Program-made: the position numbers and the translations under genes
In this document: positions 2,170-24,734 of the stretch, piece after piece
How positions within the stretch are numbered: position 1 is the stretch's first letter
Layout: each line of letters starts with the position of its first letter
The notes under the pieces: generated by a model
Seen by the model: only the letters and a program-made list of their open reading frames with translations
The model's database searches: none
Told to the model about the DNA's origin: nothing
From: a virus
Lineage: Duplodnaviria > Heunggongvirae > Uroviricota > Caudoviricetes
Reading direction: 5' to 3' (one strand)
DNA length: 25,860 nucleotides
Virus record (IMG/VR): IMGVR_UViG_3300045988_049160

Positions 2170-2434
2170 TTACATCGCACTCCTCTTGTGCCATAGTAAT
2201 CGGGCACTGGCAAAATCCAGTGCCGGGATTGGTCTCCCGGATTACTACAGAGGCACATATGCCGCATAAGCGGTTTTTTTATGTGTAAAGCGCACCTATT
2301 CTATGGTGGGCTGTGTGGGGGCACCGAAAGGTGCGCCGGGTTCCTTTGTAGCCGGTAAGACCAACTCTGCACAGTTCACCACCATCTGATTGGTCTCAGC
2401 GGTGGTGATTAACCTAACTACAAAGGTGATCGCT

Positions 2435-3127
2435 ATGAATACCAAACCTTCCATCTTTTCCTTTGAGTCATCCTGCCAGATCCGTATGTTCATGATTGAC
2501 GGAGAACCTTGGTTTGTCACCAAAGATGTGTGCAATGCTTTGAATATTGATGTTACACAAGCGAGAAAACTTGATAAAAAAGGCTGGAACAAAAAGGGGC
2601 TGTATTCAATACAGACCCCTGGTGGAATACAAGAACTATCCATCGTTTCAGAATCAGGTCTCTACATCCTTATTCTGCGTTGCAAAGAGGCAATGACTGA
2701 GGGAACGAGAGCATTCAGATTTCTTGAATGGGTTACAGGTGAGGTTCTTCCTCAGATCCGCCGCACCGGAAGTTACATTAAAAACTCGCTCCCGCAGGAA
2801 GAACGCATAAAGATGGTTGCCGACCAGGTAGCCAACGCCACGGCGTCAGCAGTAATGCAGGCAATGAAGATAGAGAACAAAACCTACAGTGCCCCGCTGA
2901 AGCCCGGCTACCGCAGCCTGATTCATTCGCCGTCTGGTGTTCTCGGCCTGACGGAGAACTCACTGCTGATGAATCTGCTGAACCAGTTACAGGACGACGG
3001 GCACGACGTATCGGGCGCGGCGGCGGAGCTGACCACCATGTTCTGCTACATCGTCGGTGTGAGCAAATGCCTGCGTGATATCCAGACCCACGCGGAGTAT
3101 ATCAACGACAAAGCAGGGTTCTTCTGA
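2435..3127 (+). CDS. Phage antirepressor-like protein with Bro-N N-terminal domain
   Basis: ATG at 2435 with AGGTGA RBS; N-terminal region FESSCQIRMFMIDGEPWFVTKDVCNALNI...GGIQELSIVSESGLYILILRCKEA matches the remembered Bro-N/antirepressor pattern; C-terminal domain duplicated in the 1031..1288 protein. Confidence 0.6.
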   Translation: MNTKPSIFSFESSCQIRMFMIDGEPWFVTKDVCNALNIDVTQARKLDKKGWNKKGLYSIQTPGGIQELSIVSESGLYILILRCKEAMTEGTRAFRFLEWVTGEVLPQIRRTGSYIKNSLPQEERIKMVADQVANATASAVMQAMKIENKTYSAPLKPGYRSLIHSPSGVLGLTENSLLMNLLNQLQDDGHDVSGAAAELTTMFCYIVGVSKCLRDIQTHAEYINDKAGFF

Positions 3128-3211: not shown

Positions 3212-3228
3212 ATTACCCGATTGGTAAA
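3212..3228. promoter_or_regulatory. Putative operator ATTACC-CGATT-GGTAAA (copy 4)
   Basis: Lies between a TTTACA -35-like hexamer (3170-3175) and the RBS/ATG of the 3249 gene. Confidence 0.4.
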
Positions 3229-4328: not shown

Positions 4329-4340
4329 GTGACATGTCAC
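4329..4340. repeat. 12-bp perfect palindrome GTGACATGTCAC (copy 1 of 4), overlapping the lipoprotein stop codon and adjacent to the terminator
   Basis: Exact sequence; identical copies at 21728-21739, 22120-22131 and 24386-24397. Confidence 0.8.
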
Positions 4341-4717
4341 GCAACGCAATTATTACCGCGCCATGTAACATTTTTAATAATCTTATCAGCACCAAACTCA
4401 ACGTAAACAGAGCAACTGAAATGGAGTGTATAACCGCCATCAGTTGTTGCGTATGTGTTTGAATATATAGTATTACCAATTAGATTAGACGTAGTATTAT
4501 ACGTTGTGGTTTGTGGTACGTTATAACTACCAGAGCTTGAGTAAACATACACTCTGTTTCCATCTGGAGATGTAAGCTCTCCCTGAGGATACCCCCACTG
4601 CTGAACCATTGCGTCTATACTCTGCCCGCGCCACGTAAGCATATTTCTTTCAAACTGTGCAGCTGACTGGCATCCAACGAGAAGCATAAATCCAAAAATC
4701 AAAAATACTTTTCTCAT
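4337..4717 (-). CDS. Lipoprotein (lipobox LLVGC), Thr/Ser/Tyr-rich mature domain; function unknown (candidate exclusion or lysis-associated lipoprotein)
   Basis: Internal ATG at 4717 gives MRKVFLIFGFMLLVGCQSA..., a classic signal peptide plus lipobox Cys; last gene before the operon terminator. Confidence 0.55.
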   Translation of the reverse strand: MRKVFLIFGFMLLVGCQSAAQFERNMLTWRGQSIDAMVQQWGYPQGELTSPDGNRVYVYSSSGSYNVPQTTTYNTTSNLIGNTIYSNTYATTDGGYTLHFSCSVYVEFGADKIIKNVTWRGNNCVA

Positions 4718-4802
4718 AATTACCCCTATCATGGAAAAACAGCACCAATCCACAAATTAACTAGTTATTTTATTATTCTTCCGAACAATACAATTCCGAA
4801 TA

Positions 4803-18408: not shown

Positions 18409-18701
18409 TCCTGTTCACTGGCCTCTTTGGCCATCTTCAAATACTGTTCAGGGCAATGCGCCATAACGCGCTGAAACAGTTCCAGCGCCAGATTGCGTTG
18501 CCCCTCATTAAATGCCATTGCCATAGCGTCCATCGGTGAGATAGCGGAAAACACACGGCCTTTCTCCAGCACCGACCAGACAACGCGACGCCCCTGTTCA
18601 CTGCTCATGACAAAGCAAATGTCATCAATTTCACGCTGTGCCATGTCACGTTGCTTACGGGCGTTTTCTTCTTTCAGTTGATCGTCTTCGTAATCTGTCA
18701 T
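18405..18701 (-). CDS. Hypothetical head-assembly-associated protein (98 aa)
   Basis: Translationally coupled between portal and scaffold. Confidence 0.4.
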   Translation of the reverse strand: MTDYEDDQLKEENARKQRDMAQREIDDICFVMSSEQGRRVVWSVLEKGRVFSAISPMDAMAMAFNEGQRNLALELFQRVMAHCPEQYLKMAKEASEQE

Positions 18702-20687: not shown

Positions 20688-20704
20688 ATTACCTTTCAGG
20701 TAAC
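20688..20704. promoter_or_regulatory. Putative operator ATTACC-TTTCA-GGTAAC (copy 5)
   Basis: About 90 bp upstream of the gp6.7-like start, in the region where the structural operon must restart after the plus-strand moron insertion. Confidence 0.35.
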
Positions 20705-21723: not shown

Positions 21724-21744
21724 CGCCGTGACATGTCACAATCA

Positions 21745-21771
21745 GCCCGCCGATTCGCCGGGCATTTTTTT
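21745..21771 (+). terminator. Rho-independent terminator after gene A (GCCCG...CGGGC then T7), also the leader of gene B
   Basis: Hairpin at 21745-21763 followed by T7, then AAGGTGA RBS and ATG at 21784. Confidence 0.5.
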
Positions 21772-21783
21772 AAGGTGAAAATC

Positions 21784-22116
21784 ATGAAAGAGAAGACTGC
21801 AGCTGAGCGCTATGCCGCAGCTATCAATGCCGCGATGGCGATTGTAAACCTGCGTGAAGAGATTAAAGATCTCCTTGCAATTATCCATAACAACCTGACA
21901 TGTACAGAGTTGCTTGGCGGTCAGTACAACGGTGAGGCGGTGAAGGAGGCATTTAAAAATGCCGAGGTAGGAATAATTCCAGCAAACTATGTCAAGGCTG
22001 AATGTGTGCTCCTAAAGGCACGAGTGAGTCTGCATGAAGATCCTGGTAATCTCGGTCGAACTGCAATGCGTTACGTGATAGACGAGTCGAATGCCAAACA
22101 CAATCTACCGAAATAA
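21784..22116 (+). CDS. Hypothetical protein (110 aa), moron gene B
   Basis: ATG at 21784 with AAGGTGA RBS; 5' leader almost identical to that of gene A. Confidence 0.55.
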   Translation: MKEKTAAERYAAAINAAMAIVNLREEIKDLLAIIHNNLTCTELLGGQYNGEAVKEAFKNAEVGIIPANYVKAECVLLKARVSLHEDPGNLGRTAMRYVIDESNAKHNLPK

Positions 22117-22135
22117 CACCGTGACATGTCACAAA

Positions 22136-22162
22136 CAGCCAGCCTATGAGCTGGCTTTGTTT
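22136..22162 (+). terminator. Rho-independent terminator after gene B (AGCCAGC-CTATGA-GCTGGCT then TTGTTTT)
   Basis: Perfect 7-bp stem followed by a T-rich tract. Confidence 0.6.
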
Positions 22163-22206: not shown

Positions 22207-23682
22207 TTAAGCATAGGGATCGTAATCTGTGATGGCCTTGCCTTGCTGGTTCTGCTGACCGGGAATTCGCAGACGCTTAGACACAGGGAACGCAAACGTC
22301 AGCAGTAGCGCATCGCCTTTACCCGGTGAACGCCCAAGCCGCTCCTTGATATCTTCCTTCGGTTCGATAACGATTTTACCGTCCACTCGAACTTTGTACT
22401 CTGCCGCCGACAGGTCGTCTGCTGTTTCCTGGTCATCCAGCATGCCGCCCAGCCTCAGCCATGTCTTGCATGAATTGAACATCTCCCCACGCTTGTTGAG
22501 CATCTGCGGGTCAGTAGACGCGCCACCGAACGGAACAAGTTGCCATGTACGACCCCAGCCGTCACCGATTGACTTCAAACCGGTTCCGTAACCGAAGTCG
22601 ATGAACACCGCGTCAGCCTGATACTGGTCTTCAAAGTCAGCGATACGCTTCGCCATAATCAGATCGTCGGTAGTCTTGTTGCCAGTCCACAGCACCTTAC
22701 TGTGTAGCCCCTGCCGCAGGTATATCACAGCGTCATCAACGCCGGAGTATGCCGGGTCAACGCCGATTATCACCGGAGCATGTGCAACCTGCGCAGCGGT
22801 TACCACCCGTTTCATTGCCTCGTCAGTAAGACCGGTAGGGATAAACTGCAATTCAGATGCATCAGGGAATATGCCACGCACACGGATTTTAACGAAGTCG
22901 CTGTCTTCCCCGTAGTCATCAACCCATTTCTGCAACTGCTGTTTGTTAGTGCCTTCCACCGTCCGGCTGTCAATCTGCGCAGTTTTCCAGCGGTGTTTAT
23001 ATTTGCGGAAACATTCGCGAAAACGCCCGGTGTTACGTGTAGGGTTTCCGAACGCCACCCAAATAATCTCAGTGTCTTCGTCCGTAAGCGCACCCTCGGC
23101 AACTTCCCACACCAGATCCGCAATGTTCGACGCTTCATCAAACACCACGATGATGCGTTTGCGCTCGTTGTGTAGTCCGGCGAATGCCTCGGTGTTGTGC
23201 TCAGACCAGGGTATTGCGTCAGCCCGCCACCGCTTGTCGTGCCCTAGGTCATTGCTGTACATCGCGGTAGCGGTACAGGTAAACCAGTCTTTCGTGATAG
23301 CAAGGTTCGACCACTTGATAATTTCCGGCCAGGTCTTCGTTCGTAGCTGGTTGTCGGTGTTGGCGGTCACCACGACCTTACAATCCTCGCAAGTGGACAT
23401 GCCCCAGTTGATCAGCATTGAGATGAATGCGGATTTACCAATACCGTGACCAGAAGCGCGTGCCAGCATAAGCGGCTGATAGCGCGTCTCTGGATTCTGC
23501 AGGTGATCACGTATCTCTCGGAACGCATCAGCCTGCCACTGACGTGGGCCGGTGGCATGTGCCAGTTCAGTCCCCTCTTCCCCCCATGGGAACGCATAGA
23601 GGGCATAGCCAAGCGGATCGTGAGTGAACCCTGCAATATCCTCGATTAACTGCTCTTCAGGAGATAACGCTGTATCTGTCAC
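22207..23682 (-). CDS. Terminase large subunit (ATPase plus nuclease), GTG start
   Basis: 491 aa; Walker A-like ARASGHGIGKS; Walker B-like IIVVFDEAS; C-terminal nuclease-like segment VIIGVDPAYSGVDDAVIYL. GTG at 23682 overlaps the terS TGA; AGGA RBS. Confidence 0.85.
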   Translation of the reverse strand: MTDTALSPEEQLIEDIAGFTHDPLGYALYAFPWGEEGTELAHATGPRQWQADAFREIRDHLQNPETRYQPLMLARASGHGIGKSAFISMLINWGMSTCEDCKVVVTANTDNQLRTKTWPEIIKWSNLAITKDWFTCTATAMYSNDLGHDKRWRADAIPWSEHNTEAFAGLHNERKRIIVVFDEASNIADLVWEVAEGALTDEDTEIIWVAFGNPTRNTGRFRECFRKYKHRWKTAQIDSRTVEGTNKQQLQKWVDDYGEDSDFVKIRVRGIFPDASELQFIPTGLTDEAMKRVVTAAQVAHAPVIIGVDPAYSGVDDAVIYLRQGLHSKVLWTGNKTTDDLIMAKRIADFEDQYQADAVFIDFGYGTGLKSIGDGWGRTWQLVPFGGASTDPQMLNKRGEMFNSCKTWLRLGGMLDDQETADDLSAAEYKVRVDGKIVIEPKEDIKERLGRSPGKGDALLLTFAFPVSKRLRIPGQQNQQGKAITDYDPYA

Positions 23683-24275
23683 TGATTGCCATCCTGACGT
23701 TCTTTCAGTCTCTTCCTGGCTGCCGCTATGCGATCAGCAATTGTCACATTCACATTAACATCCAGGCGTTCTTTGAATGCGTTGACGTCGACGTGCTTAC
23801 CAATCAGTTCGAGGTTCTTCACCTTGTCAGGCCATTTAATTTTTTTGAGGATTGTCTCTATCGAATCCTCGTTCATGTTCATGATGGTCGATGACAGATC
23901 AAAGCCACTAAGCGTAGTGCGCCAGATTTTCGGCCACTCGCGGATTGGCTTAAGGCTCCCATCGTCGTTGAGGATGTCGATCACGTCCATCTGGTCGATC
24001 TCCACCAGGCGCATGAGAACGTAATCAGCACTGACGCGCATTCGTTTGTTGCGCTCTTCCATCAGCTCGGCAATCCGTTTTTGAATGCGTTCATCGCGCA
24101 TCATGAGACTGGCTTTAACTGCCGCTGTATTTGGGGAGAATCCTGCGTTAATCGCTGCCTGAGTCTGGTTTTCAGGCGTTTTGATGTATGACTGGCAATA
24201 AGCCTCCTGCATTGCTGTTAGTGGCTTAAATTGCGTTGATTTGCGTTTATAGGTTTTAGGTTCAGCAGGCATCAT
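23679..24275 (-). CDS. Terminase small subunit (putative); start at 24275 or 24272 rather than 24353
   Basis: Directly upstream of and coupled to terL; helix-turn-helix-like segment TQAAINAGFSPNTAAVKASLMMRDERIQKRIAEL typical of small terminases. The track start would place a terminator hairpin and low-complexity repeats inside the coding sequence. Confidence 0.55.
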   Translation of the reverse strand: MMPAEPKTYKRKSTQFKPLTAMQEAYCQSYIKTPENQTQAAINAGFSPNTAAVKASLMMRDERIQKRIAELMEERNKRMRVSADYVLMRLVEIDQMDVIDILNDDGSLKPIREWPKIWRTTLSGFDLSSTIMNMNEDSIETILKKIKWPDKVKNLELIGKHVDVNAFKERLDVNVNVTIADRIAAARKRLKERQDGNQ

Positions 24276-24325
24276 AACCACCGTGGTAATAGTTACCGTT
24301 GTGGTAATAGTACCATGCAAAATAA

Positions 24326-24345
24326 AGCCGCCATAGTTGGCGGCA
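24326..24345 (-). terminator. Rho-independent terminator (GCCGCC-AACTAT-GGCGGC then TTTATTTT on the minus strand) between the regulatory gene cluster and terS
   Basis: 6-bp GC stem; the minus strand continues with a T-rich tract. Confidence 0.5.
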
Positions 24346-24428
24346 GTATTCAAAACCCATCAAATTCATCATGCATAATCTACTCGTGACATGTCACGCT
24401 ATTAATTTCGTTTCATGCCAGCCTTTAG

Positions 24429-24734
24429 TCACCCAGCATTCCGAGTCACCATTACACGGGCATGAATTAACGGGAACTCTCTCGCCGCACTTACCGCAAC
24501 GTTTCTGCTGATCGATTTTATACGCCCGTGCACGCGTGCATCATCCTGGCGGATCAGTAACGCTATATACTCACCAAATTCGTAAGGCGCACGCCCGGGG
24601 CGACGCGTGGCACAGTTACGCTCCAGCATTTCAATTTCCTGAGCATCAAGCACAATTTCCAGCTTACGCACACCAGATGCAGCTTGTCTGGCTCTCTGAG
24701 CGGCTTTGCGCTCTGCTGCTGATTTAGCCATCAA
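24429..24734 (-). CDS. Small basic protein (101 aa), possible DNA-binding / late regulatory protein
   Basis: AAGGTGA RBS; Arg/Ala-rich N-terminus (AAERKAAQRARQAASGVRKLEIVLDAQEIEMLERN); sits where lambdoid phages place late regulators, just upstream of a terminator and the packaging genes. Confidence 0.35.
   Translation of the reverse strand: MMAKSAAERKAAQRARQAASGVRKLEIVLDAQEIEMLERNCATRRPGRAPYEFGEYIALLIRQDDARVHGRIKSISRNVAVSAAREFPLIHARVMVTRNAG

Follow-up and report, generated by a model that had tools for sequence, protein, structure and literature searches.

What is the function of the short tandem repeats that lie between a transcription terminator and the start of the small terminase gene (terS) in this phage DNA, and which protein, if any, recognizes them? 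The window, by which we mean the whole stretch of 25,860 nucleotides that was analysed, comes from a temperate podovirus of the epsilon15/phiV10 type (genus Uetakevirus) and holds the late-gene half of its genome. Its late genes are on the minus strand, its gene order is that of the annotated phiV10 and epsilon15 records (both of which have their starts set next to terS by convention), and its terS region is 97-98% identical to those of phiV10, TL-2011b, ZX5, PAS61 and the O157 typing phages 9 and 10. The phage's own rep gene is located beyond the window. Prophages of the phiV10/epsilon15 type are common; at least 80% of the segment upstream of terS is present in 496 of 5426 complete E. coli genomes (~9%). 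The gene 5' of terS is a homologue of epsilon15 gp49 and TL-2011b gp20, a "transcriptional regulator" of PHROG 536. Between this gene and the end of terS we distinguish the following elements.

24327..24344, minus strand: intrinsic terminator, GCCGCCAACTATGGCGGC then TTTATTTT, with a 7-bp GC-rich stem and a 4-nt loop.
24307..24315, minus strand: predicted extended -10, TGgTACTAT (TGn plus the hexamer TACTAT), from conservation.
24292..24308, minus strand: O1, ATTACC-ACAAC-GGTAAC, 1 mismatch to ATTACC-N5-GGTAAT in 12 positions (motif scan).
24274..24290, minus strand: O2, ATTACC-ACGGT-GGTTAT, 1 mismatch in 12 positions (motif scan).
24278..24282, minus strand: Shine-Dalgarno sequence of terS, GGTGG, within O2 (sequence reading).
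23679..24272, minus strand: terS, small terminase of the Terminase_2 family (Pfam PF03592, E = 1e-29; PHROG 51).

The preliminary description had placed a tandem direct repeat between the terS start and a minus-strand terminator near 24326-24345. The terminator is there, at 24344-24327, closing the upstream operon just 5' of the promoter/operator block, and the repeat is real. An exact 11-mer, GTGGTAATAGT, occurs at 24283-24293 and again at 24301-24311, and it extends, with one indel allowed, to GTGGTAATAGT(T)ACC. On the plus strand the copies read GTGGTAATAGTTACC (24283-24297) and GTGGTAATAGTACC (24301-24314), with a start-to-start spacing of 18. As a bare direct repeat it exceeds chance only weakly. 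No other 11-mer in the window recurs at a spacing of up to 30, and 10% of Markov-simulated sequences contain at least one such repeat, so we rejected it as a statistically remarkable feature in its own right (p ~0.1). This figure is also a point in favour of an explanation in which the repeats have no function of their own and either arose by slippage duplication or encode extra N-terminal residues of TerS.

What had been taken for the conserved unit, the direct repeat, is in the wrong register: the conserved units are two inverted repeats with 5-bp spacers, O1 and O2. These are abutting 17-bp palindromes, O2 beginning 18 bp past O1, and the layout on the coding strand is TGgTACTAT-TACC-ACAAC-GGTAAC-t-ATTACC-ACGGT-GGTTAT-g-ATG. 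The direct repeat owes its 18-bp period to the distance between the two tandem operators, and the canonical 5-bp-spaced inverted pair bridges the junction between the two repeat copies. Everted GGTAA/TTACC half-sites with a 3-bp spacer had been ascribed to each copy; they are found in the first (GGTAATAGTTACC), while the second reads GGTAATAGTACC, and what looks like an everted pair is the right half of O1 followed by the left half of O2. The direct-repeat copies (24283..24314, plus strand) are thus best read as a by-product of tandem palindromic operators with similar flanks. A third operator 5' of O1, based on a GGTAC half-site, was considered and rejected, as this half-site has no partner at N5.

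Natural variation separates the two registers. Among 80 IMG/VR contigs we distinguished 15 sequence variants of the phiV10 lineage, in which polymorphism is absent from all 24 half-site positions and present at 8 of the 22 further positions between terminator and ATG (Fisher p = 0.0012). The polymorphic positions are 24318, 24313, 24310, 24301, 24300, 24291, 24283, 24273 and 24269. Several of the changes disrupt the identity of the direct repeats (GGTAC to GTTAC or GATAC, and T to A at the base separating the operators) and leave all four half-sites untouched. Since the variants break the direct-repeat identity and never the N5 palindromes, selection acts on the palindromes. The half-sites of O2 show zero polymorphism among these 15 close variants, and for its right half the ribosome-binding site could be an alternative source of the constraint.

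The same pattern holds over a greater distance. In an alignment of terS-upstream prophage sequences from Citrobacter, Pseudocitrobacter, Erwinia, Klebsiella, Scandinavium, Superficieibacter, Kluyvera and Pseudescherichia, which comprise nine lineages in these eight genera, the invariant columns are TGnTAnTATTACC-N5-GTAA and the spacers differ, those of O1 being ACAAC, AAAAC, ATAAC, AAATC, ATATT, AAAAT, TTCAT and TAAAA. The block of predicted -10 and O1 is kept even in three lineages (L008, L010 and Kp4865-1) in which unrelated DNA has replaced the upstream gene and the terminator. An equivalent of O2, ATTACT-N5-GGTAAC/T, is found in epsilon15, in L008 to L016 and in several IMG/VR contigs. It is degenerate in Kp4865-1 and in SPC32H (3 mismatches in the latter), and the tandem arrangement is therefore not universal.

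The possibility that the repeats belong to an N-terminal extension of TerS depends on where terS starts. The reading frame is open from 24353 (ORF 23679-24353), and in the phiV10 record (L088, NC_007804.2, 41-715) the terS gene phiV10p01 is annotated from a TTG equivalent to this position, upstream of the intrinsic terminator, with a frame that reads through O1 and O2. We rejected this extended N-terminus on several grounds: in-frame stops 6-42 nt 5' of the ATG or 1-nt indels occur in 5 of 9 relatives, the terminator would fall inside the coding sequence, and the Pfam domain begins past the ATG. The window has ATGATG at 24275-24270, where the second ATG (24272-24270) is conserved and the in-frame ATG at 24275 is not; the first is lost in variant L140, and epsilon15 aligns only with the second. 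The spacer and right half of O2, which ends 1 nt before the conserved ATG, hold the Shine-Dalgarno sequence. This is kept as GGTGG or GGCGG in relatives, and in phage Tyrion a ribosome-binding site is annotated at the equivalent place. These comparisons indicate that the true phiV10 terS start is the ATG equivalent to window position 24272, which would correct the annotation of that record. Given the stops, the indels, the misplaced terminator and the position-specific constraint on the half-sites, we give almost no credence to the repeats being functionless.

If the palindromes are the functional units, where else do they occur? A scan of the window for ATTACC-N5-GGTAAT with at most 1 mismatch gave 7 sites against 0.01 expected, starting at 939, 2059, 2152, 3212, 20688, 24274 and 24292. 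The last two are O2 and O1; the surroundings of the others are as follows.

939-955, strand not given: site within the tailspike-ant divergent region.
2059-2075, 2152-2168 and 3212-3228, strand not given: sites flanking an inserted island with a large Ant-like gene (2390-3127; PHROG 130).
20688-20704, strand not given: site 5' of the gp3/portal operon, as at epsilon15 2931.

Related genomes carry the motif at syntenic places, with 11 sites in epsilon15, 9 in phiV10 and 12 in SPC32H. The epsilon15 RefSeq record (NC_004775) has seven protein_bind features labelled "repressor", all of them this motif and themselves predictions. One of these, annotated at 12-27 between the terminator and terS, marks the position-for-position homologue of O1 (epsilon15 11-27), and the window aligns with epsilon15 base for base through the operator region. 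Seven relatives have the motif on either side of rep and ahead of each late operon. Its places in related genomes include the starts of the operons for portal, tailspike, lysis and nin-like genes. Epsilon15 has it on both sides of rep, one copy lying over the -10 of a near-consensus leftward promoter PL (TTGACA-17-GATTAT|TACC), and further copies cover the -10/start regions of sequences resembling promoters that stand ahead of gp43 and of the lysis genes. Going by these predicted promoters, the epsilon15 placements are classical operator positions. In front of gp3 and the tailspike operon the motif stands ~15-27 bp 5' of the predicted -35 and not over the promoter. The sites also recur in pairs; in seven genomes they are 17-18 bp apart 9 times and exactly 62 bp apart 13 times, O1/O2 being one of the 18-bp pairs. 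The 62-bp pairs suggest looping by a tetrameric repressor.

Taken together, the dispersed motif, the homology to a predicted epsilon15 repressor site and the overlap with a conserved TGnTAnTAT support one of the roles first proposed for the repeats, that of a regulator site or late promoter. We are highly confident that O1 and O2 are functional copies of a dispersed operator.

The motif is also found before terS in two distant prophages whose TerS is 66-67% identical, at 1885-1901 of the Pseudomonas lundensis locus (L017) and at 2416-2432 and 200-216 of that from Samsonia erythrinae (L018). In the Pseudomonas lundensis locus the Shine-Dalgarno sequence is within the operator spacer (GTTACC-AAGGA-GGTAAT).

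Three proteins could be expected to recognize such a site: Rep, TerS or the gp49-type regulator. The second of these corresponds to the other role proposed for the repeats, a TerS recognition element of the pac or cos type, in which TerS would bind boxes 5' of its own gene and start headful packaging. In its favour are the location of the site directly 5' of terS and the membership of TerS in the Terminase_2 family, whose SPP1-like representatives recognize repeated boxes around the gene 1 start. Among 80 TerS-related genomic loci the site is at terS in only the 11 closest, and these comprise every locus with a TerS identity of 66% or more (11 of 11). A pac site should be unique or nearly so, yet the 25.9-kb window contains the motif 7 times and each related genome 9-12 times, the canonical operator positions flanking rep among them. 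Moreover, phiES15, Pseudomonas phage 15b and Aeromonas phage 2_D05, which have TerS proteins 57-60% identical and neither Rep nor gp49, have 0 sites, and the pattern of palindromic half-sites and spacer is typical of a dimeric HTH protein. A literature search on Uetakevirus packaging ends returned nothing usable. On this evidence recognition by TerS is highly improbable.

The gp49-like gene (24734-24429) was considered in turn as the source of a late-gene activator that would bind the motif and switch on terS and the late operons. This gene is adjacent to the site, the motif precedes every late operon, and at gp3 and tailspike it has an activator-like position upstream of the -35. The gp49 protein is also the better conserved, with 77% identity between the epsilon15 and phiV10 types against 42% for Rep. 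Against these points, the motif is over the -10/start of the strong promoters flanking rep, which is the position of a repressor, and it is missing from unrelated phages with a gp49 homologue. Chlobot, a lambdoid phage with a gp49 88% identical, and ZF40, a myovirus with one 66% identical, have no Rep match by search and 0 ATTACC-N5-GGTAAT sites even at 2 mismatches (37.5 and 34.9 kb). The palindrome that accompanies gp49 is another one, GTGACATGTCAC. An activator role for gp49 at O1/O2 therefore seems to us very unlikely.

All 7 Uetakeviruses with homologues of Rep (plus gp49 and TerS) have 9-12 sites each, and from this pattern of co-occurrence across genomes the motif tracks Rep and not TerS or gp49. 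It is thus likely that Rep is the protein that binds O1 and O2. Over its full length the phiV10 Rep is homologous to the SPC32H repressor of structure 5D50 (E = 4e-42). Rep proteins are only 43-65% identical overall, and an N-terminal segment, NLVNRW, is invariant. That the motif is unchanged while Rep has diverged to ~42% identity is unusual for immunity repressors. SPC32H Rep is described as a tetramer on palindromic sites to which N-terminal domains from different dimers contribute (PMC9638917), with a p53-like, looping-type tetramerisation domain (PMC9986798). Such a tetramer fits the recurrent 17-18 bp and 62 bp site pairs. Repressor action at "PL" appears in the ZX5 paper as speculation only.

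The second palindrome deserves a description of its own. GTGACATGTCAC is a perfect palindrome of 12 bp, of which the window holds four copies against 0.08 expected.

4329-4340, strand not given: copy abutting a terminator at 4328-4311.
21728-21739, strand not given: copy of the palindrome.
22121-22132, strand not given: copy 4 nt from a terminator at 22137-22156.
24386-24397, strand not given: copy 41 nt before the terminator 24344-24327 that precedes O1/O2.
18638-18649, strand not given: copy with 1 mismatch.

Intrinsic terminators thus adjoin 3 of the 4 exact copies. One copy is over the stop codon of ORF 4337-4753, one contains the ATG of ORF 21733-22116, and one overlaps the position of the stop codon of intact gp49 homologues. 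Two or three syntenic copies are found in each of six Uetakeviruses scanned, and in Chlobot and ZF40 the palindrome comes right after the gp49 homologue. From this association we consider it probable that the gp49-type regulator (PHROG 536) binds GTGACATGTCAC, where it may act on termination; the palindrome may exceed O1/O2 in interest. In the window itself the gp49-like gene (24429-24734, minus strand) has a 1-nt deletion near 24501-24503, AAA where TL-2011b has AAAA, a frameshift by which the C-terminal CxxC...CxC segment is lost and the product is reduced to 101 aa; the protein is intact in phiV10 and epsilon15, with 112 aa. Across this stretch the majority of E. coli prophage copies have 1 nt more. 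The deletion may truly have inactivated the gene, or it may reflect a sequencing error in the homopolymer.

If Rep binds O1 and O2, what would it control there? A consensus promoter scan from the terminator to terS found no canonical -35/-10 promoter, and manual pairings such as TTGCAT-17-GGTAAC were poor, for which reason this possibility was dropped and an extended -10 reading adopted. The predicted promoter has no usable -35, and its hexamer TACTAT matches 4 of 6 positions. It has the TG one base 5' of the hexamer, the A at hexamer position 2 and the T at position 6 that define an extended -10. TGnTA(C/G/T)TAT is present in 9 of 9 divergent lineages, and among close variants the only changes within TGnTAnTAT are at the "n" (24313) and at hexamer position 3 (24310). 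The last two bases of TGnTAnTAT are the first two of O1, in the same register as at epsilon15 PL. We infer from this conservation that TGnTAnTAT is an active extended -10 promoter, with transcription predicted to start near A24300, which would put O1 at ~-8 to +9 and O2 at ~+11 to +27. On balance, we favour the view that a promoter overlaps O1.

Other elements were considered at this place. A palindrome around the -10, TGGTA-CTAT-TACCA, was rejected, as its third base (24313) may be G, T or A and it is unconserved as a palindrome. Folding of the predicted 5' UTR (24302-24255) is no better than that of shuffled sequences (z = -0.95), and a GGUAA/UUACC hairpin as an RNA element was not significant. 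A lambda-type Q/qut module (a promoter and a short terminated RNA ahead of the late genes) was looked for with the upstream gp49-like gene as the candidate antiterminator, and this gene matched neither a Pfam or NCBIfam family nor any solved structure. Ahead of the terminator the only sequence resembling a promoter is a weak one, GTGACA-18-CATGAT.

The weakness of the promoter gives room to an explanation with the same operators and no local promoter, in which terS is transcribed only by read-through from the early-right operon upstream, across the terminator at 24344-24327, and the repressor on O1/O2 is purely a roadblock or insulator that shields the late genes from such leakage. The missing -35, the 4/6 hexamer and the empty consensus scan agree with it, as do the location of the sites directly 3' of a strong terminator and the fact that O2 covers the 5' UTR and not promoter elements. 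The terminator is present in epsilon15 (annotated stem_loop, 39646-39672) and in most relatives and is missing in L008, L010 and Kp4865-1. TG-n-TA-n-TAT is invariant in all nine lineages, these three with their unrelated upstream DNA included; the two positions that vary are the least constrained positions of an extended -10, and the -10/operator overlap has the register of epsilon15 PL. These observations argue against a pure roadblock, and we consider it unlikely.

The explanation that best accounts for the locus, and one that we regard as probable, is that O1 and O2 are bound together by a Rep tetramer that shuts a late promoter for terS. In this model, the prophage repressor Rep would be a tetramer whose N-terminal HTH domains pair on palindromic sites, and in the lysogen one tetramer would fill both O1 and O2. 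O1 would cover the last two bases of the extended -10 (24315-24307) and the predicted start at ~24300, and O2 would extend over ~+11 to +27. Since the operators would cover the end of the -10 and the predicted start, Rep is expected to block open-complex formation or promoter escape, and bound Rep would also be a roadblock to transcription leaking through the terminator at 24344-24327. Upon SOS induction a LexA-controlled antirepressor, Ant, would strip Rep from the operators and make transcription of terS-terL possible. In SPC32H, antirepressor expression is reportedly under LexA control. A LexA-box-like sequence, TACTGTATAAACATACAGTT, is present in the window at 992-1011, 37 nt past the operator at 939-955 and just before a small ant-type ORF (908-1288; PHROG 450 match spanning residues 42-126), and its core is the same as in the ant-tailspike region of epsilon15. 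By analogy, this sequence fits LexA-controlled antirepressor expression in the phage studied here.

A wider extension of this model is that Uetakeviruses have a one-tier lytic programme, in which Rep would gate terS, portal/head, tailspike and lysis genes directly and removal of Rep by Ant would be the sole switch. We offer this tentatively and regard it as doubtful. If true, the tetramer would bridge the 17-18 and 62 bp pairs, a dedicated late activator or antiterminator would be unnecessary, and the O1/O2 pair over the extended -10 at terS would be the entry point to the late genes. More generally, if our reading of O1/O2 is true, the immunity repressor would hold off packaging and virion genes directly at the start of each operon, in contrast to the usual cascade that ends in a late activator or antiterminator. 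The pairing of sites would then be explained by a tetrameric repressor, and the sites would amount to a testable map of the Rep regulon.

The closest known system is epsilon15, and the site described here is the phiV10-type orthologue of its predicted repressor site, which has been labelled as such for years; it is largely ordinary and does not define a new class of element. The epsilon15 site upstream of terS shares with the window the motif, the position between terminator and terS, and the genome-wide distribution. The right half of O1 is GGTAAT in epsilon15 and GGTAAC in the window, and the left half of the window's O2 is nearer to consensus, which accounts for the stronger appearance of a direct repeat. 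Neither O2 nor TGnTAnTAT is annotated in the epsilon15 record, and records of the phiV10 type have no repressor-site annotation. The new elements here are the recognition of O2, the reading of TGnTAnTAT as an extended -10, the test of constraint at the population level and the co-occurrence test favouring Rep over gp49 and TerS. The Rep/Ant switch of SPC32H (structures 5D50 and 5D4Z) has a Rep homologue with NLVNRW and 12 syntenic copies of the motif; its O2 equivalent is degenerate, unlike that of the window.

Among less related systems, pac of SPP1 consists of pacL and pacR boxes around the start of the small-terminase gene. It is like the window in having short repeated boxes 5' of a Terminase_2 terS that overlap expression signals, and unlike it in that the window's boxes recur genome-wide and track Rep and not TerS. 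In the OR and OL regions of lambda, 17-bp pseudo-palindromes over -10/start regions are filled cooperatively at adjacent sites by oligomeric CI. The window's operators differ from these in sequence and in the family and architecture of the protein expected to bind them; CI is cleaved, whereas Rep would be removed by an antirepressor, and the lambda operators are confined to the immunity region, whereas those of the window type are also found at the starts of late operons. In P1, a single immunity repressor, C1, controls several separate operons directly from many scattered operators, a regulon that resembles the system of the window in its dispersed layout. The P1 operators are asymmetric and bound by monomers, and the late structural genes of P1 are controlled indirectly via the activator Lpa, whereas phages of the window type have operators at each late operon.
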